Positions 470 through 17,235 of a DNA stretch of 41,035 bases are shown here, piece by piece. Source of the stretch: a virus (Duplodnaviria; Heunggongvirae; Uroviricota; Caudoviricetes); IMG/VR virus record IMGVR_UViG_2671181040_000013; one strand, 5' to 3'. The notes below the pieces were generated by a model. That model saw nothing but the letters and a program-made list of their open reading frames with translations, was not told where the DNA came from and ran no database searches. A program made the position numbers and the translations under genes. The number at the start of each line of letters is the position of its first letter. Position 1 is the stretch's first letter.

Positions 470-1873
470 TTGAGAATGCCGCGCACTGTAACACATAATC
501 CGGATAGCCCCAATAATGACGATGTTTTAGCCGCTTCTGAAAAATGGGACGCCTGTAAACCCCCCTATACTAGCGCACACATGAAAATCTGTGTTGCTGC
601 CGCCAAAATCATCCTCGCTGCTTCCGGCGTGGCTCGCCGTTCCAAATACGAAAAAGAGAACTATCTCCGTATCGATTTCAGCAAAGCCGGTAAGGTTACA
701 TTTTACGCCGAGTTTCCAAAAAAGATGGGCCTCAAAGGTAAAAAGCTCGGCGAGTGGCCGGAGCTCGCTATCCAGCTGGCGCGCGAAAAAGCGCTAGGTA
801 TGGCTGACGGTGGCCTGCGGGCAGAGTCCGTACATGCAGCGCTGGAAATGTACCGGGATGACCTCAAAGCCAAAGTCGCCCGGCAGAAGCTGAGCCCGGA
901 CAGTTTCACAACCTACGGGGTGCGTATCGACCGGATTAAAGCAACGTTCGGCGAGCGCGAGGTGTTCAGCGACGTAACATACAATCGGCTGGTGGAAGTG
1001 CTGGACGAGTGGATCGCTACTCGCTCGAACAATAACGCCCTGGAGTTGTTTGCCGAGCTCCGTCGGTTCTGGAAGTTCTGCGCACCTACTCTTTGCAACG
1101 GCCGCAATGTTGCCGCCAGTCTGCCAGATGATTATGTTTCCTCCCGCGTACAGAAACCTACCCCCACACGGCTTTTTACCGATATTGAATCAATCGCCCG
1201 GCTCTGGCTCAATGTTGCCGCCTGCACCTCTGTACACCAGAAGAATGCTGTTCGCTTCATGATCATCACTGGTGTTCGTCCGATTAATGTCCATAACCTA
1301 CGCTGGGACTACGTTCACGAGGAGGCTGGTGAAATTGTTTATCCGGAAGGGGTTATCGGCATGCGAGGGGCTATGAAAACACAAAAGGCTTTTCGCCTGC
1401 CGATAACCCCTGAGATCCGGCGGATTATCGACGAGCAGAAAGCCTGGCGTGATTCAGTTCCTGAGTGCAACAGGGATTATGTATTTTTGCAGCCACGTGA
1501 TCCAATGCAGCCATTTTCAAAACGATCACTGGATAAGCTGGTGAAAACATACAGCCCGGACGGGGCTGTAAAAGGAATAAAACATGATGGGACTGTTAAA
1601 GGGAAAGACGGTGCATTTAATACGATGTGCCGTAAATTCCTTAAGAGCAATGTTATTGCCTTGATGAAGGAAAGAGGCTATTCCCGATCAGACCGAAGGG
1701 AAATCAGCCTCCTTTGCCTTCACCACTCCAGCAAGTCAGATGACCCGATGGCAGAACATTACGACTTTTCTGATGAGATTTTACAGGAAGAGATTGCGTT
1801 GAAGCGCGAAGCTTTCGAGGCTCACGAGCGGAGCATACTTGCGCAGGTGGCATTGCTACGGCGGCGAGGTTAA
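470..1873 (+). CDS. int: Tyrosine-type site-specific integrase
   Basis: 467-aa ORF next to the host junction; C-terminal region has recombinase-like Arg/Lys/His and terminal Tyr (EHYDF); convergent with the excisionase-like gene. Exact start uncertain. Confidence 0.8.
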   Translation: MRMPRTVTHNPDSPNNDDVLAASEKWDACKPPYTSAHMKICVAAAKIILAASGVARRSKYEKENYLRIDFSKAGKVTFYAEFPKKMGLKGKKLGEWPELAIQLAREKALGMADGGLRAESVHAALEMYRDDLKAKVARQKLSPDSFTTYGVRIDRIKATFGEREVFSDVTYNRLVEVLDEWIATRSNNNALELFAELRRFWKFCAPTLCNGRNVAASLPDDYVSSRVQKPTPTRLFTDIESIARLWLNVAACTSVHQKNAVRFMIITGVRPINVHNLRWDYVHEEAGEIVYPEGVIGMRGAMKTQKAFRLPITPEIRRIIDEQKAWRDSVPECNRDYVFLQPRDPMQPFSKRSLDKLVKTYSPDGAVKGIKHDGTVKGKDGAFNTMCRKFLKSNVIALMKERGYSRSDRREISLLCLHHSSKSDDPMAEHYDFSDEILQEEIALKREAFEAHERSILAQVALLRRRG

Positions 1874-3531: not shown

Positions 3532-4410
3532 ATGACCTCAGCTTATACAGATGTCCAGCAAGAAGAAAATATTACTGATAAATTAGTTGTTAAATATGAT
3601 GGTCCCGCACTAGCAGATCATAAAATAGATTTGGATGTTTTAACTGAGTCATTGAATGGACTAAACAACTTGCTTAAAGAAGTTAATTTGGTTGTCAATG
3701 GCACTAGTGAGTGTATTAATGTTGAGGTTGAGCCTTTTAAGGAAGGCTCATTTGAGTATTTGATTGATGTTATTCAAAATCCACTTGACCATTTGAATAT
3801 ATTAAGCATTATTGGGCTTGGAGGTACAACTGCACTCGCAGCAGGAAATACTCTCATTGACTTAATTCGTCAGATCAATGGTAGGCAAATAAAACGGTTG
3901 ACTTTAACAGCGGAAGGAGACTGTAAAATAGTTATGGATGATGGTGAGGAAATTATAGCCCCGTCATATTTCCGGCCTTTACTTGCCTCACCAAGCATAC
4001 GCAAATCCTTATCGAAGTTAATTCATAATCCTTTGCAAAAGGAAGGATACGAATCGCTTAAAATTTCAACTCAACAGGGGGTTGAGCTGATTAAGGTGCA
4101 CGAAGATAATATTGAACCGTTCAGATATAGGCGCGTTCCTGTAGTGCAGTCCTTGTCTGAAAGGGTGATTGAAGAGGCTCTAATCACATTTTTGACTATT
4201 CATAAGGATAAAAACACAGGCTGGCGAGTCAACTATGGCGATGACACAATCAGCGTGTCTATAGAAGATACTGAGTTCTTACAACGTGTTAGTACGGGAA
4301 GAGAACCTGGTGTTTTTAGTGATGCTTACTGCGTTGATTTGCTCGTCCGTGAGAACTTGAATTCGCTGGACAAAACGTACATAGTTGTTAAAGTACACGG
4401 CATCTTATAG
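3532..4410 (+). CDS. Hypothetical 292-aa soluble protein, first gene of accessory cassette
   Basis: ATG preceded by AAAGGAA; AT-rich by eye; opposite strand to flanking replication genes; no recognisable motif. Confidence 0.7.
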   Translation: MTSAYTDVQQEENITDKLVVKYDGPALADHKIDLDVLTESLNGLNNLLKEVNLVVNGTSECINVEVEPFKEGSFEYLIDVIQNPLDHLNILSIIGLGGTTALAAGNTLIDLIRQINGRQIKRLTLTAEGDCKIVMDDGEEIIAPSYFRPLLASPSIRKSLSKLIHNPLQKEGYESLKISTQQGVELIKVHEDNIEPFRYRRVPVVQSLSERVIEEALITFLTIHKDKNTGWRVNYGDDTISVSIEDTEFLQRVSTGREPGVFSDAYCVDLLVRENLNSLDKTYIVVKVHGIL

Positions 4411-5985: not shown

Positions 5986-8049
5986 TTAATCCTTACGGTA
6001 GTGGTACGCCTCAAAACCGCCAGCGTTCAGTGGGATATCGGGCGCCCATTCGGGGTCAGTGGAGAGAAGCGCGGAAAGCGCTTTATCGTTGAAATCTTCT
6101 GTGTCAGGTGCTTCGGTGATCACCTCGTCGTGTACCGTCAGCACAATGCTGTAACCGGCATCTTCGATAAGCGGCATGTTTCCGGCCAGAATGTCGCGGG
6201 CGGCCGCCTGGGTGATGTTCTCCACCAGCTTTCCGCCGTAGGTTTTGAGTCGTTGCCATTTACGCGAATAAGAGTTAACCCCCATGTAGGTGATATTCCC
6301 TTTTTCGATAACCGGAGACGGGTAGCATACAGCGCGTCCGGATGGTAGCTGTATGCGCAGCCACGCGCCATCGCGGCGGATTTTAAGATAACCGCAATAC
6401 AATGTTTTTTGCGGTGTGGCGATTGCAGTGCGGACGGTGCGCTCCAGTTCGTACCAGAAATCACAGGTCGCGGGATGCGCCCGGCGCCAGAGACGTTTAA
6501 GTGAGTCGCAGGCGATAAATACCCGTTCAGAAAGCCCGTAGGTTGACTTGCGTTTAACCGATTCGTCGTACCAGCTTTTTGCCTCGCGGATAACATCGCG
6601 GGGAATGTTTGGTAGTGCGGCGTTCGCCAGCTCGTCGAGATCGAGACCGTAAACCAGTGCAAAAGTGATGAAGGCCGACACACCACCACCATAACCCAGA
6701 CCGAGTTCCATGACTTTACCGATCTGACGCATGTGTTTATCAACATCATCTGGTGCAATATCGAAAGCTTTTGCATACGCCAGTTTATATAAGTCCGGAC
6801 CCGTTCCGGCGTCGTACTCTCTGAATGCATTCAGTTTCCATTCTTCTCCCGCCAGCCATGCCAGCATACGGCCTTCAATGTTCGACAAGTCACTTACCAC
6901 CAGCTTTTTGCCTGTTGGCGCGATAATGCAGCCACGTAACGCTGAACTGGTTAGTTCCATGATATTGTCAAACAGCAGGTCTGCACATCCGGCTTTCAGT
7001 GCTTCGATGCCTTCGTCTATTTGTTCCTGTTTTAGTGAAGGGCGGGGAAGGTTCTGGGGCTGGAATAGCCGTCCGGCCCAACGACCGGTACGTGACGCCC
7101 CGCAGAACTGTAGCGTACCGCGTAAGCGCCCGTCGTGGCTTACGCCTTTCATCAGTGCCTTGTATTTACTGGTGCTGGTAGTACTGGCCTGCAGGCGGAT
7201 AGCCAGCAGTTCTTTCACGGCAGATGGTAAATCGGGGTCGGCAATACGACGTTCCAGAGTACTGCGTTGCATGTCCGGTAGCTCCACACCGTAGGATTCA
7301 ACAATGTGCTTAATCAACGCGTCCCGTTGTGTGGCTGCCTGCACTTCGCCATCAGTCATTTCCTGTGTACGCTTTGCCAGGCGCTTTTGCTCCTGGTCTA
7401 CCGCTTCGATCGCAGCGCGCGCGAGTTGCATGTCCATGCAGACGCCCCGGTCGTTGATCTGCTGATCACGATGCCAGAGCGCCAGCTCTGTCCCCTGATA
7501 ATTCCACTTCGGCAGACGTTTATAGACTTCGCGCATTGCCTCGATATCCAGTCCGGCGTAAGCAACAAAGCGCCGCCATTCTTCCGGGTGGGTTTTACTG
7601 GTGGCCCGACGCAGTTTGCTGTTTTTTGGGCGTGGCTTACAGAACAGCTGGATCAGCGCTTTACCTTCTTTGTCCTTCGCTTTGTCTTGCGGGACGCCTA
7701 GTACTTCGCAGAGTTCCCCCAGAGACCCCGGGAGACCGTGCGCCAGCGCCTGCACCATCGTGTCGCGCCAACGTTCGACTGGCGGTGCCAGTCGCGGCAT
7801 TGCATAACGCAGGACGGTGCGGTCGAAGTGAGAGTTATGAAAATAAAGCAGGGTTTCAGGGGCTGCGATTGCTTCGTATAAGCCGTGTGGAATACCACTA
7901 CCGGCAGTGATATCCCACACGTTTACGGGCCCGTCGTTGATAGCCCATGCGAACAGCATCACTTCAACGCCTTCGGCATACGCATGGGTACCGTTCGTAA
8001 TAGGGATTTCGCAATAGGTTTCTAGGTCACCCCATAGTATATTGGACAT
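5986..8049 (-). CDS. Family A DNA polymerase with 3'-5' exonuclease domain
   Basis: Exo motif DLETY near N-terminus; polymerase motifs ([25 protein letters not shown]) in the 687-aa translation. Confidence 0.9.
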
Positions 8050-8105
8050 AAAATAACCTTGTGTGATATATGGTTATGTAGGTGTAAATAAACAAGGAGA
8101 CGGCG

Positions 8106-8375
8106 GTGTTTAGCTTTGGTATCGGAATACTTTCATTGATAGGTATTATTGCTTTCCCCATTCTTTATATTTTAGGGAGAATAGTTCGGGCTGGTGGCGC
8201 ATGGCTCGAACGTGAAGAAGGTCCTAAGGATCGTGTTCTTCCCAAAATTATAATTTTTGCGCTTATTGGGTTCTTTCTTGGGTGTTTGGCTCAGCCTGTA
8301 TGGGACAGCATTTCGGCATGTAGAGACTATGGCAATCCAATAGGGAAATGTCTTTTTAAATTCAATGAATTTTAA
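8106..8375 (+). CDS. Small (89 aa) two-TM membrane protein, accessory gene
   Basis: GTG start with AAGGAGA RBS; two hydrophobic helices; AT-rich; opposite orientation to flanking early genes; hairpin 8392-8427 downstream. Confidence 0.55.
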   Translation: MFSFGIGILSLIGIIAFPILYILGRIVRAGGAWLEREEGPKDRVLPKIIIFALIGFFLGCLAQPVWDSISACRDYGNPIGKCLFKFNEF

Positions 8376-8442
8376 TTTTTAGTATTGCGGTAGGCTGGTT
8401 TGGATAACTATTTTCTTAAGCCAGCCTTTGTTATAAGAAATA

Positions 8443-9081
8443 TTAAGCATCTACCCCTTCGTCAGAAGGGAGGCCGATCATTTCGTTGAGAGTTTCGCGT
8501 CGTATAGCTGGCGGAAGCGGAGCAGATGGTGCATCGGCTGGCAGAAGTTCTTTAGCTTCAGGCCACTCTTCCAGCAGGCGCTTAACTGTGCGCACTTTAC
8601 TGAGTGCAGCGCTGACATTCTGTCGAATGTCTGACTCATCGCTCTGTATCTGCTCATAAAGTGCATCAAACCCGTAAAACTCTGTAACTAGAGGGTCATT
8701 TGCCAGAAGGGTAAATTCCCCCGGCGCGATTTTGTGAATATGGTCTGGTGACCCTGATTCATATCCTCGATAGTTACCGTTGAAATAGACGGTAACCCGA
8801 GAACCTGCCAGATTCAGACACATGTAACACTCTTTCCTGATAATATTATTGGCGGTTTTTAATGCTTCGGGGACTTTTGATACCAGTATTTCTATTTTTT
8901 TTATAATTTTTAATATTTCAGCTTCTTTCTCTACGCCCCCGATAGCTGCAAGCCGAACACGTTCGGCCCATTCAACACGAGCAGCTCGTAGTGCTGATTT
9001 ACGTTTGGGGATACCCGCTTTCTCAAGTGCGTTATTGATGATTTGAGTTTTAAGGTGATTAGTTAATACGGGCTGTGACAT
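8443..9081 (-). CDS. Hypothetical phage protein (about 212 aa)
   Basis: Long ORF in early operon; start chosen at MSQPVLT with GAGGG RBS. Confidence 0.6.
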   Translation of the reverse strand: MSQPVLTNHLKTQIINNALEKAGIPKRKSALRAARVEWAERVRLAAIGGVEKEAEILKIIKKIEILVSKVPEALKTANNIIRKECYMCLNLAGSRVTVYFNGNYRGYESGSPDHIHKIAPGEFTLLANDPLVTEFYGFDALYEQIQSDESDIRQNVSAALSKVRTVKRLLEEWPEAKELLPADAPSAPLPPAIRRETLNEMIGLPSDEGVDA

Positions 9082-9132
9082 TATTCTTTCCCTCATGAGA
9101 TCCCCCAGCATGTAGCTGGGGGATGAATATTT

Positions 9133-9681
9133 TTAAATTAGTGCTTCAGCATCAGCACCTTCGCTGATATCGTCGAAATCGTCAGCGCTTGCCACTCCGC
9201 CGCCAGCGAATGCATCGCCGTCTCGCAGGAACTGGACTCCGCCGAGTGAGGCATTAATGCGTTTACCGAAATTATTGTCCTGTGCCCAGATATCGATAAC
9301 GGCGTTTACATAGCACCCTGCATAGGGACGTCCGTCAGCCTGAATAAGTGGCGAACGATCGCGATCAAGAACAGCTGGGCGCGCTTTGTTAGCAGCATTC
9401 AGGAAGAAATTACCGGGGAAGCCTTCATACTCTGCTTTTTCATCACCATCATGCAGGCACAGATTGAGTTTTTTCTCCAGCTGGTTATAAATGGGCTCCC
9501 ACTTCTCTCCCCATTTTTCCTTCGCTACCTGCTTCATAGCTTTACGGATTTCTTCCAGTTGTGGGTGTTTGGGAGACATTAAAAATACTGCGGAGAAACG
9601 CGGATCGCCTTCGCCGTTTACAGTTTTAGCTTCAAACAGAGACGGGAAGGCCAGACGAACATTGTTCAGCTTCAGTTTCAT
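9133..9681 (-). CDS. Phage ssDNA-binding-like protein (DUF2815-like)
   Basis: N-terminus MKLKLNNVRLAFPSLFE and acidic C-terminal tail DDFDDISEGADAEALI. Confidence 0.7.
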   Translation of the reverse strand: MKLKLNNVRLAFPSLFEAKTVNGEGDPRFSAVFLMSPKHPQLEEIRKAMKQVAKEKWGEKWEPIYNQLEKKLNLCLHDGDEKAEYEGFPGNFFLNAANKARPAVLDRDRSPLIQADGRPYAGCYVNAVIDIWAQDNNFGKRINASLGGVQFLRDGDAFAGGGVASADDFDDISEGADAEALI

Positions 9682-9696
9682 GGGGATTTCCTTAAA

Positions 9697-10998
9697 TCAG
9701 ATGAGGTCTGCGGTTAGCGTATCGTCGGATACGTCGTCGAAATCATTTACAGGGTTGATATTGAGTGCGGGGCGTGGGTCTGACTCGGGAACGACGGTGG
9801 GTTTACCATCAGCTCGTGTTATCAGTGCCTCGACTTTTGACCAACGGCGCGGACTGGCCTTTTTGATAAGTTTTTCGGCTTTTGTGGGACTAATAAGTTT
9901 AAAGTCGAATACTTCTTCAGTTTTGTACCTGAACTGGTCCTTCAGAAGTGCGCGAGCTGCCACTTCGTCACTCCAGGCCCGGTTACCTTGTTTTCCTGTT
10001 ACCAGTTTAAACCCCGGTACCGGATGTCCGGCATTGAGTTCATTGTGAACCCGGTCCCGTACTGCCTTTAGCCAGGATTCAATAAAGTCGGCCTGGCTAT
10101 AGATCTCTGCAAGCTGCTCAATGGTTAACAGAGGTACACGTGCGCTGGCATTGGTGATTATTTCGCTGACAGGCTTTGTCAGATCTTCAAAATCGCTGGC
10201 CGCTGTTTGTAAATGCTGCATTTTCTGGGCAGTGCAAATAGCTTTTGCTTTACAGAAGCGGCACTGTTTTTCTCCAGGTATGAAGTTTTCCAGCGGTAGT
10301 GTCTCAATGCCTTCGCATTCAGCAATATTGAGAACAAGGATCGCACTGGTTGCGGCCTCCAGTGCCCGTTCTCCGAAAGACTGAAGTTCCTGTACGGTTA
10401 ACGACCATTCTGAAACGTGGTTGAGCCTTGGTTGGTGAATAAATAATCTTACAGTTTCAAAGTCATACAGCATGCTGAATTGTTCAAGCGCACCCAGAGC
10501 ATACAGTTGTAGTTGCTCATTTTGTTCTGCATCAATGCGGACGCCTTTGCCATATTTCAGGTCGTGGATTTGTAATTCGTTACCAGCGATGATTATGCCG
10601 TCGGCAGTTCCGAAAGATTCTTCCACACCCGTTATATGTGAGAAATCAACACGTTGTTCAACCAATAGTTCATTATTCTTTGCAAGAGTCCAGACCGTAT
10701 CAACATACCGGCCGACGGCTTCGACCATTTCATCATCCACCTGTGGGCCAGATTTATCATCAGGATTTTCGCGAAGGGGGTATGAGCCGAGAAACATAGA
10801 AACATTGCATCCGGCGTAGTGTTCCGGGTGGCTTTGCCTGTTTCGTAGAACTTTTTCAGCAAGCGCGTGCGCTGCAGTGCCCTCGATTGCAAAAGTTGTT
10901 TCTTTATCCGGTTGTGTGGCCTCCAGCGCCAGACTTCCTGGGCAGCGCATCCATCGATGCGCTGATGATGGAGAAAGTTGTGCGTGAACGTCTGGCAT
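9697..10998 (-). CDS. PD-(D/E)XK / Cas4-like nuclease (DUF2800-like) with C-terminal Cys cluster
   Basis: [14 protein letters not shown] motif near N-terminus, [10 protein letters not shown] cluster, acidic C-terminal tail. Confidence 0.75.
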
Positions 10999-11000
10999 GA

Positions 11001-11903
11001 TTAACCCTCCAGTGCTTTTTCAGCTAGGGTGATTACTTCAGCGAGATTTTCATCCGTTACTTCACCAAGTTTCCTGGCTCCCTGTTTTTCCAGAATTGCA
11101 ATAGCTTCTGCCCGGTAGCCCCCTTTTGCTAACTGGAGGATCAACCCTTCAGCTTGTTTGCGTAGTGCCGCGAAATCAATTGTATGGTCATCTTTGGCGT
11201 CATTATTCTGGCTGGAATTTGCTGCGTCTCTGCGTGCAAATTCTTCCTGCAGCTGAAGGTACTCAACACGGTTGATCTCGATATGGCCTTTTTTCAGCAT
11301 CTCGTTCAACTTGCGTAAGGTGTGGAGTTCACTGGCTGCTGTGCCGGATACATTTTTGACGTAAAACGGCCCCGTGCGTTCTCCATCCTTGTTACTGGCC
11401 TTTTTCGGCTTAACTTCATCACGCCCATCCGCAGGTGCATCAAGTAGCTGCTCGGCAAAAGCACGTCGCTCGCCGATGGTTGGCAGGTCGTCCCAGAACT
11501 TAAGGATGTTACGGGACAGGTCCAGGAGAGCAGGTTTAAGCAGCGCCCTGGCTCGTTTGACGCCCTGCAATGCGCTGTCGAGAGCATCAATCTGAACTAC
11601 TCGTTTATCGCCTTCAGCATCACGGTAGGCAACAGCACGTTGCAGCATGTCTTCTGTGATAGGGGTGGCTACCGGGTAGAAACCAGCCAGTGCGATAACG
11701 TCGCTGAACTCCAGATCATCCAGTGTCATTGCCGCTGACATATTTTCAGTTTCAGTTGCTGTATCCCGACATTCCTGCACTCGTGAAATCGTGTCAGGAT
11801 GCATAACAATGCCTGATGCCATTGTGCGGATAAGACGTTCAAGCAGCGCATTATGTTGTGCCAGAAGTTGATTATTAAGTTCTAGACTGGTTTCTAAACT
11901 CAT
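11001..11903 (-). CDS. Hypothetical phage early protein (300 aa)
   Basis: Long ORF overlapping neighbours by 4 bp in operon. Confidence 0.6.
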
Positions 11904-12049
11904 ACTGTGGTCCTCGCTACAAGGAGAATGAAAGTGATGATCAGACCGAGCGCAGTGGCAACGGCCAGACCGGTCATCAAATCGAAGTTTTTACGGCGAT
12001 AACGGAGAACATCGCGCCCCGTCAGTCGATGGATGTGTTCAGGTTTCAT
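11900..12049 (-). CDS. Small membrane protein (about 49 aa)
   Basis: Start at MKPEH with AAGGAA RBS; C-terminal hydrophobic helix; ATGA overlap with downstream gene. Confidence 0.4.
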   Translation of the reverse strand: MKPEHIHRLTGRDVLRYRRKNFDLMTGLAVATALGLIITFILLVARTTV

Positions 12050-12108
12050 CGGTTGTATTCCTTTTTTCATATCGGGGAGCACGCTGTTGCGAGTGCGCTT
12101 TCAGACAT

Positions 12109-12134
12109 AAAAAAGCCCGTCACGTGAGGCGGGC
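12109..12134 (-). terminator. Candidate intrinsic terminator inside the leftward early operon
   Basis: On the minus strand, GC stem GCCCG...CGGGC followed by a run of six U, between the first early gene and the rest of the operon. Confidence 0.45.
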
Positions 12135-12165
12135 AAAGACTACACACAGCAATTACATGGATGAT

Positions 12166-12360
12166 TCAGTTGGTATTGTGCGTACGTGGTACCACAAGGT
12201 TGAAGCGGACACGCCAGTGCGTTGCAATGGTATGCAGGAAAGCACCACATCCAGGGCAGTGCTCATAACATTCGTTGATTTGGTATTGTTTTGGCTTTGG
12301 TGTCTGAAGCTGTGTTTGGCAAGCAAGGCATTCACCTTTGAGCGGTTTATACGTTTTCAC
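12166..12360 (-). CDS. Small Cys-rich zinc-ribbon-like protein (64 aa), first gene of leftward operon
   Basis: GTG start with GAGGAA RBS; CxxC ... CxxxCxxC spacing; basic. Confidence 0.5.
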   Translation of the reverse strand: MKTYKPLKGECLACQTQLQTPKPKQYQINECYEHCPGCGAFLHTIATHWRVRFNLVVPRTHNTN

Positions 12361-12667
12361 GCCGTTTCCTCATTCAGTTCACTTTGGTGGTTCGGCGGCT
12401 TCGACTTGTATCAGTAGACAGTGCTTCGCCAGTGGATTAGTAAAAGGCCAGAAGCCTTTGATTAATTCACTGCTCGCCCCATCGTCGGGGCGTTTCAATT
12501 TGCGTGACTTATCAGCTCGTCGCGGTGTTGTCCTCTACGCTTACCGTACGCATACGGACTCGGCGCTTACCTCGATCCCATCGGGTGCCATTTCATTTTG
12601 CCAGGAGTACTGCGGCTTACCTGTCACGCGGTTCAGTTTGTTAAAGAGCGATTACTTATTGCGATTA

Positions 12668-12702
12668 AAAATACAAGCAAACCTGTAAATGCGTCAACAG
12701 GT
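12668..12702 (-). promoter_or_regulatory. Candidate leftward early promoter/operator (PL/OL-like)
   Basis: Minus-strand TTGACG -35-like hexamer; inverted repeat ACCTGT-N10-ACAGGT (12681-12702); 17-mer TACAAGCAAACCTGTAA (12672-12688) repeated at 13502-13518. Confidence 0.4.
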
Positions 12703-12750
12703 ATTTTGGTAAAAAATGCATTATTAACCTAATTACTTGTTTTCACAGGT

Positions 12751-12777
12751 AATAAAAAAGAGGGCCTAAGCCCTCTT
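12751..12777 (-). terminator. Intrinsic terminator downstream of the repressor gene (potentially bidirectional)
   Basis: Stem AAGAGGGC/GCCCTCTT with CTAA loop, flanked by an A-run on one side and T-rich tract on the other. Confidence 0.6.
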
Positions 12778-12798
12778 TGTTTAGTAGTCAGGATGCGA

Positions 12799-13428: not shown

Positions 13429-13453
13429 GTTGACTCCTTTTCTGTCATTGATG

Positions 13454-13518
13454 ATTACAGATACCTCTGTATTTGACAAACAAGGTTGCCTGTGAGGTAA
13501 TTACAAGTAAACCTGTAA
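13454..13518. promoter_or_regulatory. Divergent PRM/PR-like promoters with operator repeats
   Basis: Rightward TTGACA (13472-13477) -N17- GGTAAT (13495-13500); leftward -35 TTGTTT and -10 TGTAAT on the minus strand (plus coordinates 13478-13483 and 13454-13459); 17-mer TACAAGTAAACCTGTAA at 13502-13518. Confidence 0.5.
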
Positions 13519-13535
13519 TAATGAGGGCTTACTCA

Positions 13536-13760
13536 ATGACCAGTTCTACCCTTGCTTCACGTATAAAGGAGCGCCGCAAAGCTTTAGGTATAACCCAAAC
13601 TTCATTGGCTGAAAGTGTTGGCATGCGTCAGCAGTCTGTTCAATACCTTGAGTCCGGACGCGCCACCCGTACCGGTTTCATCCTTGAATTGGCAAAAGTT
13701 CTGAAATGCGATCCTGACTGGCTATTAAACGGCGAAAATTCAGAGCAGCAAAAGGTGTAA
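13536..13760 (+). CDS. Cro-like HTH regulator
   Basis: 74-aa protein with HTH (ITQTSLAESVGMRQQSVQYLESG), divergent from the repressor; GAGGG RBS. Confidence 0.7.
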   Translation: MTSSTLASRIKERRKALGITQTSLAESVGMRQQSVQYLESGRATRTGFILELAKVLKCDPDWLLNGENSEQQKV

Positions 13761-13763
13761 CCC

Positions 13764-16028
13764 ATGTCTGATAACAAACCATGGGGAGCTACGCCCGATG
13801 AATGGTTCCACTTCGATCTGGTGTTGGGGATGACAGACAGGCTTTTACCTGTGGTGTCCAATCCCTGTGCAGAACTGTCGCCTAATAGCAAGCTGTCTCA
13901 TAATTTCGGCAAAACACCCAGTCGCTACAATGGCCAACGTAAGGTTGTTGGTATCCCCGACTGGGCTAACTATGTTGTTACGGAAAACGATTTTGCCCGG
14001 TGGTCGAACGAACCCGATTACGGTATTTGCGTTCGTACTGGCGACGGGGTGGTGGCTCTGGACTGCGATATCAATGACGCCGGGATGCAGGAGATCGTAC
14101 GCAATATTATCCTGTCATGCCTGGGGGAACTTCCGCCACGTCGCTGGCGGGCTGACAGTCATAAATGCCTGTACCTGATTGCTGTTGATGGCGACTACCG
14201 TAAACGTGGTCACCGCCTGGAAGGCGAAAATAAACAAATAGAGCTGCTCGCTAAGGGCCAGCAGTTTGTGGCTTGTGGTACCCATCCGGCAGGCGAACGT
14301 ATTCAGTGGGACTGCGGTTTGCCCGGCGAACCTCTGAAAATTACATCTGAACAGCTCGAAAGCCTGTGGCAGCGCCTGGCGGATAACTTACCCGTGAAAG
14401 ACAGCTATACCGCAGGTGCGGGACGTCAGCGTGACCTTTCCTGTGTCGATCCTTCCGCGACAGATGATGTCGCCGACTGGCTTGACGCGAACGGGTGGAC
14501 TCTGTCGGTCAGCTCTGATGGTTCCCGCAATCTGAAACCGTTTCGGGATGAGTCAGAATACAGCAACGGTTGCAGCGAAACATCCATTAAGTATTTCCCA
14601 AAAGGGACGGGGGGATTTGAACAGGGACATTTTAAAAGCATGCACAACACCGATGCGGGGCTTACTGATGCCGACTGGCTGGAAGGCTACGGCTATACGC
14701 AATCTCTGTTCGAAGATCTCACGGTGGCTGAAGATGGCGATAAGCCTGAATTTACCGATATTAATACAGATATGACAGCCCATTTTCTGGAACGCTTTAT
14801 CTACGTCATCGAGGGTGACCAGGTATGTGATCTTAGCCGACCGCCATATCAGTGTATGATGGATATGAAGTCGTTCAAAAACCTGATGGCGCCTTACCAG
14901 TTCCCGCCAGAAGGGAAAGGACAACCAATTCCCGCAACCAAACGGTGGATAGAGCATCGGCATAAAAAGATTGCTGAGACGACAGGCTATAAGCCCGGTG
15001 CGGGACGTATTATCGAGCGTTTCGACGGGCGGTTTGAGATAAACGAATTTTATATGCCTGAGCATCCACGTACAGCGGATACAAGTAAGGTGTCCACGTT
15101 CCTTAATCATATGGCGTATCTGGTACCTGATGCCTGGCAGCGCGAGTTTTTCATCGCCCGTCTGGGGTGGATGGTTCAGCGTCCGGAGCGTCGATGCCCG
15201 ATTTCTATTCTGCATGTGGCTACCGCACATGGTACGGGCAGAGGATGGGTCAGCCAGTTAATGGAGCGCGTGCTTGGTCCGTGGAACTGTGCTCGTACTC
15301 GCATGAAGATCCTGTGCGATAACCAGTTCCATGACTATCTGTACAATACGCTTCTATGCACCATTGACGAGGTGCGCGAAAACGATAAGCGGTATGAGGT
15401 GAACGATAAGATCCGCGATGTGCTGACAGAACCACGGTTTGAAGTGAACCGCAAATATGGCAGCAAAAAAACGATGGATATATACACCGGCTTTCTGTTC
15501 TACACCAACCACTTTGATGCGCTGGCGCTGCCAGAGGAAGACAGACGTATCGCTGTGCTTGGTGGCCCTGACTTCGCCGCAACTGAAGAGCATTACGCCA
15601 GCCTGTACGGTGCGCTAAGCGACAGCGACTTTATCGCCCAGGTGTACTGGTATCTGATGGGCGTTGACCTGTCTCGCTTTAACTGGCAGCGCGCCCCCGA
15701 GACGAAAGAACGCCTTCTGATGATTGAAAGCAATAAGAGCGATGTGGAGGCTGCTCTTATTGAAATCCTGGATAATCCGCCTGTGCCAGCAATGACTTAT
15801 CAACAAATTGTTAACGCAATACTGGCAGAAGCAGGAATGGATGTAGAAATTAACCAGAAGCACATAACAAAGCTATTGCGAGAAAAAACAAAAAGGCAGC
15901 CAACAGATTTAGTAAAAATTGACGGAATGGGTTATCGCTTCTGGATACTTGCAAAAAATTGCGACTTCAATAATGAGGAATTGCGCGAAATATATAAAAC
16001 TTGCGAAATTTTGCAATCTGGATTGTAA
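13764..16028 (+). CDS. Phage DNA primase (prim-pol-like N-terminal domain, primase/helicase-like C-terminal region)
   Basis: 754-aa ORF after cro; acidic DxD-type motif (VALDCDINDAG); position and size typical of phage primases. Confidence 0.7.
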   Translation: MSDNKPWGATPDEWFHFDLVLGMTDRLLPVVSNPCAELSPNSKLSHNFGKTPSRYNGQRKVVGIPDWANYVVTENDFARWSNEPDYGICVRTGDGVVALDCDINDAGMQEIVRNIILSCLGELPPRRWRADSHKCLYLIAVDGDYRKRGHRLEGENKQIELLAKGQQFVACGTHPAGERIQWDCGLPGEPLKITSEQLESLWQRLADNLPVKDSYTAGAGRQRDLSCVDPSATDDVADWLDANGWTLSVSSDGSRNLKPFRDESEYSNGCSETSIKYFPKGTGGFEQGHFKSMHNTDAGLTDADWLEGYGYTQSLFEDLTVAEDGDKPEFTDINTDMTAHFLERFIYVIEGDQVCDLSRPPYQCMMDMKSFKNLMAPYQFPPEGKGQPIPATKRWIEHRHKKIAETTGYKPGAGRIIERFDGRFEINEFYMPEHPRTADTSKVSTFLNHMAYLVPDAWQREFFIARLGWMVQRPERRCPISILHVATAHGTGRGWVSQLMERVLGPWNCARTRMKILCDNQFHDYLYNTLLCTIDEVRENDKRYEVNDKIRDVLTEPRFEVNRKYGSKKTMDIYTGFLFYTNHFDALALPEEDRRIAVLGGPDFAATEEHYASLYGALSDSDFIAQVYWYLMGVDLSRFNWQRAPETKERLLMIESNKSDVEAALIEILDNPPVPAMTYQQIVNAILAEAGMDVEINQKHITKLLREKTKRQPTDLVKIDGMGYRFWILAKNCDFNNEELREIYKTCEILQSGL

Positions 16029-16812: not shown

Positions 16813-17235
16813 ATGCGCAGAGATATGCAACTTGTTCTGGAGCGGTGGGGGCGATGGGCCGCGAGCGAGGAATACTGTTCAATGGTTGACTGGCCTTCGA
16901 TGTCGGTGATGCCTCAACGCGTAACCGCCAGCGGCAAACCCGGTTGCTCCGACGAGGACGGAGCCGCAATTGACACCTGCATCGCCCACATGAGCATGGT
17001 GTGTCCGCATGACGACTTGCTGGTTCTTGGCCTACGTTTCATCGGCGGCTTTTCTACGCGCTCAATCGCTGAATCTGTGAATCGTAGCCACCTTAGCGTC
17101 AGAACATCGCTTAGAGCGTCAGAGGCATTTCTTGAGGGAGCGCTGGTGCTCCAGGGAATTCGACTGGATATGGACCCTGAAGTTGCTTTACCTGAAAAGG
17201 TTGTGTGCGCACAAAAACATGTGCTATGGTTGTAG
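16813..17235 (+). CDS. Q-like late antitermination protein
   Basis: N-terminus MRRDMQLVLERWGRWAA resembles lambdoid Q-family proteins as I remember them; Cys/His-rich centre; located just upstream of lysis genes. Confidence 0.6.
   Translation: MRRDMQLVLERWGRWAASEEYCSMVDWPSMSVMPQRVTASGKPGCSDEDGAAIDTCIAHMSMVCPHDDLLVLGLRFIGGFSTRSIAESVNRSHLSVRTSLRASEAFLEGALVLQGIRLDMDPEVALPEKVVCAQKHVLWL

Follow-up and report, generated by a model that had tools for sequence, protein, structure and literature searches.

How does RNA polymerase reach the replication genes of a lambdoid phage when an intrinsic terminator stands directly in front of them? This question is raised by the leftward early operon, located around positions 12,100 to 12,720, in a stretch of 41,035 nucleotides of viral DNA (IMG/VR record IMGVR_UViG_2671181040_000013), which we refer to as the window and which is a 41-kb temperate phage of Enterobacteriaceae with a lambdoid-type regulatory layout. 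An earlier note on this DNA had proposed antitermination-type control of the operon, with the product of its first gene, a small zinc-ribbon protein, as the candidate regulator. Here, we describe in this operon an operator promoter, a boxA, a structured leader that is equivalent in position to the put and nut elements, a zinc-ribbon gene with the status of cargo, a terminator that is homologous to the host small RNA RprA, and a need for read-through. On balance, we favour a reading in which the leader is the antitermination device of the operon, the RprA-like terminator gives rise to a small RNA and the zinc-ribbon gene is cargo. Antitermination-type control is likely, as the exact boxA and the presence of putL or of nutL with N at the same position in sister phages indicate, but the device would be the leader RNA and not the zinc-ribbon protein.

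An operator and promoter about 300 nt upstream of the first gene, as the earlier note had it, are present on the minus strand (12697-12668), and the operator is shared with the cI/cro region. Taken alone, the PL-like promoter is unremarkable, with 9 of 12 positions matching the consensus. Its −10 element is overlapped by the operator TACAGGTTTGCTTGTA. The cI/cro intergenic region holds two more copies, an exact one at 13517-13502 and one with 2 mismatches at 13494-13479; seven matches to this operator were found in the window against 2.1 expected, a number reached in none of 100 shuffles. Since the operator overlaps the −10 element and recurs between cI and cro, the promoter appears to be operator-controlled and, as judged from these shared sites, is the repressor-controlled early promoter of the phage, the equivalent of lambda PL. 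Its position is kept in sister phages, and the operator sequence changes there with the repressor type (TACAACTCAAATTGTA, ACAGTTTTATCTGT and others). Transcription would start at about 12660, some 300 nt ahead of the GTG codon at 12360. Between the T-run of the terminator and the start of the next gene at 12049 there are 60 nt in the window, and about 15 nt or less in some sisters; a promoter scan of this interval (12109-12049) found no promoter-like site. The replication genes downstream should therefore need read-through, as had been suspected. Neither a second copy of the boxA or the leader nor an equivalent of nutR or putR was found in the rightward operon (13429-13760, 13764), so that early antitermination, if present, would be restricted to the leftward operon.

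The transcript begins with a boxA, of which the window has a single exact copy. The comparison drew on two sets of sister phages, 80 viral contigs retrieved via the repressor protein (56-100% identity) and 74 contigs retrieved via a DNA pattern. Some 170 nt past the repressor stop, the exact boxA recurs in ∼38 of the 80 sister loci, which have repressors of 56-100% identity, and it is kept even where these are only 56-63% identical. The boxA of rrn operons reads UGCUCUUUAACAA; the window boxA agrees with it at 12 of 13 positions, contains the lambda boxA core and is a stronger match than lambda's own boxA. In the sisters L037, L046 and L111 the rrn match is 13 of 13. As a consensus boxA, the element would be expected to be recognised by NusB/NusE.

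Downstream of the boxA, the leader is conserved above the promoter itself. The 60 distinct versions of its core from viral contigs are mostly 93-100% identical, with one subtype at ∼80%. That the leader is non-coding follows from indels of 1-2 nt, which break the reading frames between leader subtypes. Its helices comprise a long-range pairing (12629-12623 with 12508-12502) that encloses three hairpins (12622-12603, 12588-12562 and 12557-12544), and a further hairpin that comes after it (12492-12475). In the proposed fold, 94-96% of the alignment cells are paired, compared with 24-44% when the 3′ partners are slid. The model-guided alignment has double changes at 15 pairs, and hairpin 12588-12562 is compensatory in 6 of its 7 pairs; single events that fit the fold are a U:A to C:G change in hairpin 12622-12603, a C:G to U:A change (L149) and an A:U to G:C change (L121). 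Searches with the leader model R1 gave a single copy per phage, and no match in loci of the put type, loci of the N type or HK022. Small peptides encoded in the leader were considered as well and rejected, given that the leader types do not keep the same frames and that a stop in the window interrupts an arginine-rich frame which some sisters have open.

Two solutions to lambdoid early antitermination are known, N protein with its nut sites and the put RNA of HK022; put requires no phage protein, and its activity depends on the zinc-binding domain of the β′ subunit of RNA polymerase. Both solutions are found in the sister phages at the very position of the boxA leader. A homologue of putL stands there in 25 of the 80 sister loci and, in addition to these, in E. 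coli 97-3250 (L003) and in a prophage of Enterobacter bugandensis (L178); it matches through an exact block of 14 nt with compensatory changes in the stems. HK022 putL itself, which was taken from the phage record and has a numbering consistent with the cryo-EM paper (PMC9378689), scores 81 bits with the put model. More distant sisters carry a boxA variant, a boxB hairpin (e.g. GCGCUGAAAAAGCGC) and a homologue of N whose N-terminus is rich in arginine (e.g. MNAQEKRRAARAEKQSAWKQANPLLVG); such homologues were also found in L066, L068, L070 and L077, and clear boxB hairpins in L056, L072, L082, L085, L066, L068 and L077. Phages of the put type and the boxA type have their cassettes, their RprA-like terminator and the genes of 49 aa and 300 aa in common. 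Because putL or nutL with N replace it in front of shared downstream modules, the boxA leader is, by comparison with these sisters, in the antiterminator slot of a modular early operon. We consider this positional equivalence with putL and N/nut to be the strongest argument for leader function. Our proposal that the leader is an antiterminator is thus made because of its position, its exact boxA and its mutually exclusive replacement by putL or by nutL and N.

In the sisters, put and boxA exclude each other with the sole exception of the hybrid L017. At 3771-3830 of this locus, an HK022-type put stem I is followed immediately by a boxA (CCGCTCTTTAACAA) that replaces put stem II, and the leader looks like a natural recombinant of the two module types.

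Several points weigh against a leader that acts on RNA polymerase at a hairpin terminator. Antitermination complexes of the rrn type suppress Rho-dependent terminators and are not known to overcome intrinsic ones; boxA alone may therefore not explain read-through of the hairpin. The window terminator, weak at −9.8 kcal/mol, may just be a leaky one. The leader family is narrow and most of its covariation comes from one diverged subtype, so that the independent covariation events are few; moreover, the alignment A2 was fitted to the model, and its three weak rows add noise. The whole transcript of 563 nt is not more stable than shuffles (z +1.3), and the first 143 nt of the leader are less stable than shuffles (z +1.8). 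The put model R2 has no match at E <= 10 in 12400-12700, a weakly sensitive test, since the positive control and known homologue putR scores only 13 bits.

Some of these points are accommodated if the boxA recruits NusB/E, NusA, NusG and SuhB solely against Rho, with hairpins that are incidental or serve stability or processing, and with a terminator that leaks. A boxA with 12 or 13 of 13 positions of the rrn consensus, an untranslated leader of 300-900 nt in most sisters, the poor structure of the first 143 nt and the weak window terminator (−9.8 kcal/mol) are all as such an explanation would have them. Protection of non-coding transcripts from Rho by BoxA is documented, and the window resembles the rrn operons and CRISPR arrays in that its long untranslated transcript carries a boxA of near-consensus sequence close to the 5′ end (PMC7665894, PMC5725501). 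The window boxA, by contrast, is part of a phage early operon and is followed by a structured RNA and an intrinsic terminator. A role against Rho would leave unexplained why ∼170 nt past the boxA are conserved above the promoter with compensatory base-pair changes; moreover, the put and N/nut devices found at the same position also overcome intrinsic terminators, and sisters with the boxA leader have strong terminators of −14.9 to −15.7 kcal/mol. We consider it unlikely that the boxA serves only this purpose, and retain the leader as the more probable antitermination device.

A likeness to put is found in one of the leader hairpins. Hairpin 12588-12562 is built of a lower helix, an AA-containing bulge on the 3′ side, a middle helix, a bulge of one purine, a short upper helix and a G-rich loop, and this build resembles stem II of HK022 put. 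The string AGGA-N5-GGCAAU is likewise common to put and the type-B leader: it was found in 40 copies of put, 5 type-B leaders and 2 independent other sites in 3 Mb, for a pattern that was chosen after inspection of the data and of which ∼12 chance matches are expected over the whole set. In put, the GGCAA lies at the polymerase-binding interface and the A64G substitution inactivates the element (PMC9378689). A blastn comparison of the leader with the nun-PL-cI region of HK022 gave no similarity. Since the pattern is post hoc and the put covariance model is without a match, the likeness of the two stems would be one of resemblance and not of family membership.

The zinc-ribbon gene was the candidate regulator of the earlier note, and a first gene of 64 aa, Cys-rich and basic, is indeed present at 12360-12166, with five Cys (CxxC ... 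C ... CxxC) and a net basic charge. Its dN/dS is 0.15-0.43 in frame compared with 1.25 and 0.43 in the other frames, its five Cys are invariant down to 73% identity, and it is probably a real gene under purifying selection. A search of 5.8 billion proteins returned homologues in 3 clusters only; none of the Pfam, PHROG and PADLOC families reached its cut-off, and weak matches to zinc-ribbon families stayed below threshold. The open reading frame (ORF) is not annotated by PGAP in E. coli prophage records, and its AlphaFold model (pLDDT 62.7) is too poor to use.

The slot that holds this gene (12166-12472, and the same interval in the sister loci L001-L178) is a cassette hot spot with at least 10 unrelated inserts in the sisters. 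In 29 fetched loci the slot is without any ORF and measures ∼50-60 nt. Elsewhere it holds ORFs of 39, 52/72, 54, 56, 58, 62-68 ('MNTYEL...'), 68 ('MRIKESD...'), 69 or 170-175 aa, or ORFs of 174 or 189 aa on the reverse strand; the 170-175-aa ORF begins MITVKRAEYLSALTCAGVK, the 58-aa ORF (L142) is a second Cys-rich one, and the 189-aa ORF has no Pfam or PADLOC match. Three cassettes, that of the zinc-ribbon ORF included, occur with both put-type and boxA-type leaders, and the zinc-ribbon ORF is missing from most phages having the same leader and the same terminator.

It is very improbable, in our opinion, that the zinc-ribbon protein works as an antiterminator in the manner of N, targeting the leader RNA or the polymerase so that the terminator behind its own gene is read through. 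As the first translated gene, small, basic and located between a boxA leader and a terminator, it does occupy the place of lambda N, and apparent purifying selection and weak sub-threshold matches to zinc-ribbon families would suit a regulator. Yet the 29 empty slots, and others filled by unrelated ORFs, have the same leader and terminator; the gene is paired with put-type as well as boxA-type leaders; no family could be assigned and the structure model (pLDDT 62.7) offers no help. The protein is also devoid of an arginine-rich motif; in the more distant sisters, by contrast, true N homologues can be recognised. We reject it as the antiterminator because a regulator of read-through would not be dispensable in this way. 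Missing in most relatives and being one of at least 10 cassettes, the zinc-ribbon gene is probably swappable early accessory cargo outside the control circuit.

The intrinsic terminator after the first gene and before the replication genes (12109-12134, minus strand) is also where it had been placed, and it turned out to be the 3′ end of an RprA-homologous module rather than a plain terminator. This homology, the exact boxA at 12650-12638 and the conservation of the leader are features absent from the earlier note. A simple terminator scanner missed 12134-12109 because a C.A mismatch in the stem widens the loop; 5 of 200 shuffles fold as well as the window hairpin. Terminator strength varies from −9.8 kcal/mol in the window, through −12.8 for E. 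coli rprA, to −14.9 to −15.7 in sisters with a perfect 7-bp stem.

By blastn, 12154-12109 is 87% identical over 46 nt to the annotated rprA in ∼5,300 E. coli genomes, and a phage-type copy is present in addition to the host rprA in ∼151 of 5,426 complete E. coli genomes. In the host gene, the sequence is ...CCCCUGAGUGAAACAACGAAUUGCUGUGUGUAGUCUUUGCCCAUCUCCCACGAUGGGCU8, and in the window module it is CUGAAUCAUCCAUGUAAUUGCUGUGUGUAGUCUUUGCCCGCCUCACGUGACGGGCU6. The two share 24 identical nt (AAUUGCUGUGUGUAGUCUUUGCCC) followed by a terminator and a U-run, and sisters have the loop motif CUCCCA as well. In many sisters the sequence is CCCCUGA(G/A)UCAUCC-AUUGCUGUGUGUAGUCUUUGCCCGCCUCCCAUGACGGGC, and the similarity reaches the terminator loop on one side and RprA nt 41 on the other, some sisters keeping CCCCUGAGU (RprA nt 41-49). 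The Rfam model of RprA (RF00034) aligned to 12214-12105 with 50.5 bits (E 3.3e-5) against a gathering score of 70, the good part of the alignment being limited to the 3′ half; in the same search the sister copies scored 49.5-59.7 bits and a genuine Citrobacter rprA 101.5 bits.

Conservation within the module is uneven. Across 52 distinct versions from 143 loci, every position of the 22-nt core AUUGCUGUGUGUAGUCUUUGCC is 94-100% conserved, compared with 35-67% upstream, 46-83% in the stem interior and loop, and 94-98% in the U-run. Stem variants are compensatory (GCCCGUC/GACGGGC, GCCUGUC/GACAGGC, GCCCCUC/GAGGGGC and GCCCGC/GCGGGC). RNase E releases the final 47 nt of RprA as RprAproc, a fragment that occurs alongside the full-length RNA and is still able to repress narP (PMC9262595, PMC6202311); its 5′ end and the start of the conserved block differ by no more than 1 nt. 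All 3′ parts of the RprAproc type are present, namely the 24 identical nt, the compensated hairpin and the U6 run. As judged from the alignment, the terminator module is a homologue of the last ∼47-65 nt of RprA, and not a member of the RprA family. A terminator alone does not need the 22-nt core, which suggests that the module is more than a terminator, and we regard it as a candidate phage-made RprA-like small RNA.

Other observations weigh against such an RNA. In RprA, the seed (nt ∼31-58) pairs with rpoS, csgD, hdeD and narP. The window module has neither the 5′ stem-loop nor most of this seed, which is replaced by coding sequence and CUGAAUCAUCC, with CCCCUGA(G/A)U kept in some sisters only; it also differs from RprA in having no Rcs-dependent promoter and no AACGAAUU part of the rpoS-pairing region, and RprA is a free-standing gene where the window module is the 3′ end of a phage early mRNA. 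The module is below the Rfam gathering threshold, and the sister L046 is without it altogether; in L020 a diverged copy was found. In a search for a target of the core within the phage early transcript, the best duplex had −23.1 kcal/mol, which does not surpass the mean of −24.2 for shuffled seeds.

It is conceivable, though we think it rather unlikely, that the module is a terminator only, captured once from the host rprA or co-descended with it, and that its conservation reflects recent mosaic spread; this would be independent of whether the boxA acts only against Rho. A score under the Rfam threshold, the missing main seed of RprA, a family confined to close relatives and a sister (L046) that manages without the module all speak for this possibility, as does a repressor-controlled promoter that would restrict production of any small RNA to the time after induction. 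Termination as such requires no more than a hairpin with a U-run, yet in the 52 versions conservation is 94-100% over the 22 nt that precede and enter the hairpin, compensated variation is seen in the stem interior and loop, and only 35-67% conservation is seen further upstream. Moreover, the extent of the conserved block agrees with that of the stable RprA form left after processing (PMC9262595).

Some further matches to the module were noted. The Erwinia phages KF806588 (Ea9-2), KX098389-91 and PV037720 match it at 83% over ∼46 nt, inside a gene for a 'hypothetical protein', and the exact 24-nt core is found in the Escherichia phages PQ299149 (LLS), PP925821 (Eeyore) and PP925827 (Flotzy). 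With the RprA-like query, 29 of 5,612 matching places in E. coli genomes were on plasmids. Among contigs of species-representative genomes, a protein search found nothing, and a scan with 25-mers hit no locus other than the host rprA genes of Citrobacter youngae and Leclercia. The use of the RprA-like piece as an attachment site was considered and rejected, the piece being 10 kb from the integrase and inside the early operon, and the prophages inspected not being located at rprA.

We propose the following sequence of events. In the lysogen, the S24 repressor, bound to the operator over the −10 element, would keep the promoter off, as the shared operators suggest. Upon induction, transcription from ∼12660 would yield as its first product the boxA and a multi-hairpin RNA of ∼170 nt that is closed by the long-range helix. 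The boxA would load NusB/S10 and other Nus factors of the host; the folded leader RNA would stay with RNA polymerase in cis, and confer resistance to Rho across the untranslated leader. A polymerase modified by the leader would be at least partly resistant to the intrinsic terminator and would not require a phage protein. The terminator could then do two jobs. It would attenuate transcription into the replication genes, and it would provide an RNA 3′ end that copies the stable, active 3′ fragment of RprA (the last ∼50-65 nt), with the arrangement of an RprA-like Hfq-type module: a small stem-loop, a U-rich stretch, the terminator hairpin and a U tail. Terminated transcripts, perhaps cut by RNase E at a conserved AUU, could yield an RprA-like small RNA during induction or infection. 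A more specific version of this proposal is speculative and in our estimate improbable. It describes a two-in-one RNA, whose 5′ ∼190 nt would be a third kind of antiterminator, independent of any phage protein and combining a boxA of rrn strength with a polymerase-binding hairpin like put stem II, and whose 3′ end would mimic RprAproc and engage Hfq and part of the RprA regulon at induction.

Comparison with known systems shows what is shared and what is not. The earlier note's description of a leftward early operon holds: as in the PL-nutL-N-tL1 region of lambda, the order is the repressor gene (cI), a terminator, the operator and promoter, an untranslated boxA leader, a small gene, a terminator, and the replication or early genes. 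As in lambda, a boxA (CGCUCUU(U)A) lies near the start of the early transcript. Unlike in lambda, no boxB-type hairpin (a 5-bp stem with a GNRA-like pentaloop) is found next to it, no ORF for an arginine-rich N lies between leader and terminator, where the zinc-ribbon ORF is the sole one with a coding signal, and the first gene is swappable cargo; the boxA is rrn-like rather than the weak lambda version, and the rightward operon of the window has no nutR-like boxA. With HK022 put, the leader has in common that it is a non-coding element directly downstream of PL, a place where sisters carry putL, and it would, like put, act in cis. The put element is of ∼70 nt with two stem-loops, whereas the leader core has 179 nt and a different overall fold; HK022 has putL and putR, of which putL as read has no boxA, whereas the leader has a boxA and one copy per genome. 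Regulatory RNAs that are by-products of a terminator subject to antitermination, as proposed here, are known among phages from StxS and other early-termination small RNAs (PMC7547250). StxS is produced from PR′ and a Q-controlled terminator and has no homology to a host small RNA, whereas the window combines a PL-like promoter with a copy of a host small RNA.

The features of the window are collected in the table.

Table. Coordinates of the early operon elements and of other features of the window
Feature	Position	Strand	Remarks
boxA CGCTCTTTAACAA (= CGCUCUUUAACAA)	12638..12650	−	∼+11 of the transcript
Conserved non-coding leader RNA core, 179 nt	12472..12650	−	60 distinct versions
Small hairpin AAAGGCUUCUGGCCUUU, then UUUUAC	12442..12459	−	Weak terminator-like element, −6.9 kcal/mol
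RprA-homologous module CUGAAUCAUCC...AUUGCUGUGUGUAGUCUUUGCC	12109..12169	−	Core 12153-12132, hairpin 12134-12115, U6 12114-12109
64-aa zinc-ribbon-like ORF, GTG start	12166..12360	−	GAGGA 7 nt upstream
PL-like promoter, TTGACG / 18-nt spacer / TATTTT	12668..12697	−	−35 12697-12692, −10 12673-12668
Operator TACAGGTTTGCTTGTA, 16-bp near-palindrome	12672..12687	.	Overlaps −10 element
Intrinsic terminator of repressor transcript	12750..12778	−	9-bp stem and T-run; hairpin 12778-12757
CI-like repressor, HTH_3 + Peptidase_S24, 209 aa	12799..13428	−	Pfam PF01381 9.6e-15, PF00717 2.4e-18
Cro-like HTH gene	13536-13760		Divergent from CI-like repressor
Prim-Pol/DUF5906 primase	13764-16028		Starts within 4 nt of cro end
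Q antiterminator	16813-17235		Then lysis genes, structural genes
First gene past RprA-like terminator, 49 aa	11900..12049	−	phrog_11981, 1.5e-36
SNF2 helicase gene	3464-2067		End of long leftward operon
Integrase	470-1873		

The repressor gene is transcribed in the same direction as the early operon, and its product is named a LexA family protein by PGAP in E. coli prophages; the terminator between repressor and promoter has a fold energy of −15.4 kcal/mol (z −3.7). Past the RprA-like terminator, the 49-aa protein, with a basic N-terminus and a transmembrane helix, heads the replication and recombination genes, which by Pfam matches encode, behind a protein of 300 aa, a DUF2800 nuclease, an Enc34-type SSB, Nmad5 and PolA. 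This part of the operon (5986-11903), with its PD-(D/E)XK nuclease, single-stranded DNA-binding protein, nucleotide-modification-associated protein and family-A DNA polymerase, may be a pointer to modified DNA. Close relatives of the window phage are the Escherichia phages vB_EcoM-606R2, -689R2 and -611R5, and prophages matching some part of 12050-12760 were found in 164 of 5,426 complete E. coli genomes (∼3%).

Three small elements at the end of the leader may be added. The hairpin at 12442..12459 is part of a 42-nt module that also follows put-type leaders and stands separately in L014, L015, L030, L051 and L081. Hairpin 12475-12492 (CGCCCC...GGGGCG) reads as a plus-strand terminator followed by TTTCAATTTG; since cassettes on the reverse strand adjoin this hairpin in sister phages, it may serve as their terminator. 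In L001 (∼4290-4330), a prophage of E. coli 89-3156, the leader tail has a three-codon ORF, AUG CAC AAG UAA, behind a strong Shine-Dalgarno sequence, GGAGGA.

Both elements would be variants within established classes, the leader among cis-acting antitermination leaders and the RprA-like module among phage small RNAs derived from terminators. Neither is in Rfam above threshold, the leader having no match at permissive thresholds either, and neither is annotated in the records inspected, which for the leader include 8 listed E. coli records without a feature beneath the match. In the searchable literature, we found no description of either element, of a phage-borne RprA homologue or of N-independent boxA antitermination in phages; an earlier description of the leader is possible in work outside this coverage (King et al. 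2011, on put-like RNAs). The leader was found in 104 of the 5,426 complete E. coli genomes and on no plasmid, and a second pattern for diverged leaders in viral contigs added just 3 near-identical copies.

The boxA leader is a possible third solution to lambdoid early antitermination. The natural mosaics in which put, N/nut and the boxA leader are swapped in front of the same terminator offer a comparative system for the minimal antiterminator RNA, and this family could show how Nus factors and a polymerase-binding RNA cooperate. The phage-type leader or module is present in ∼2-3% of complete E. coli genomes, including O26 and O111 EHEC strains. That an early phage terminator copies the stable 3′ half of a small RNA of the core genome suggests that phages can borrow small-RNA modules from their hosts. 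The borrowed module could be a handle for Hfq, a partial mimic of the seed or a competitor. If the RprA regulon, with its roles in the Rcs envelope-stress response, biofilm formation and nitrate respiration, is mimicked in this way, the module would tie prophage induction to the regulation of envelope stress in the host.

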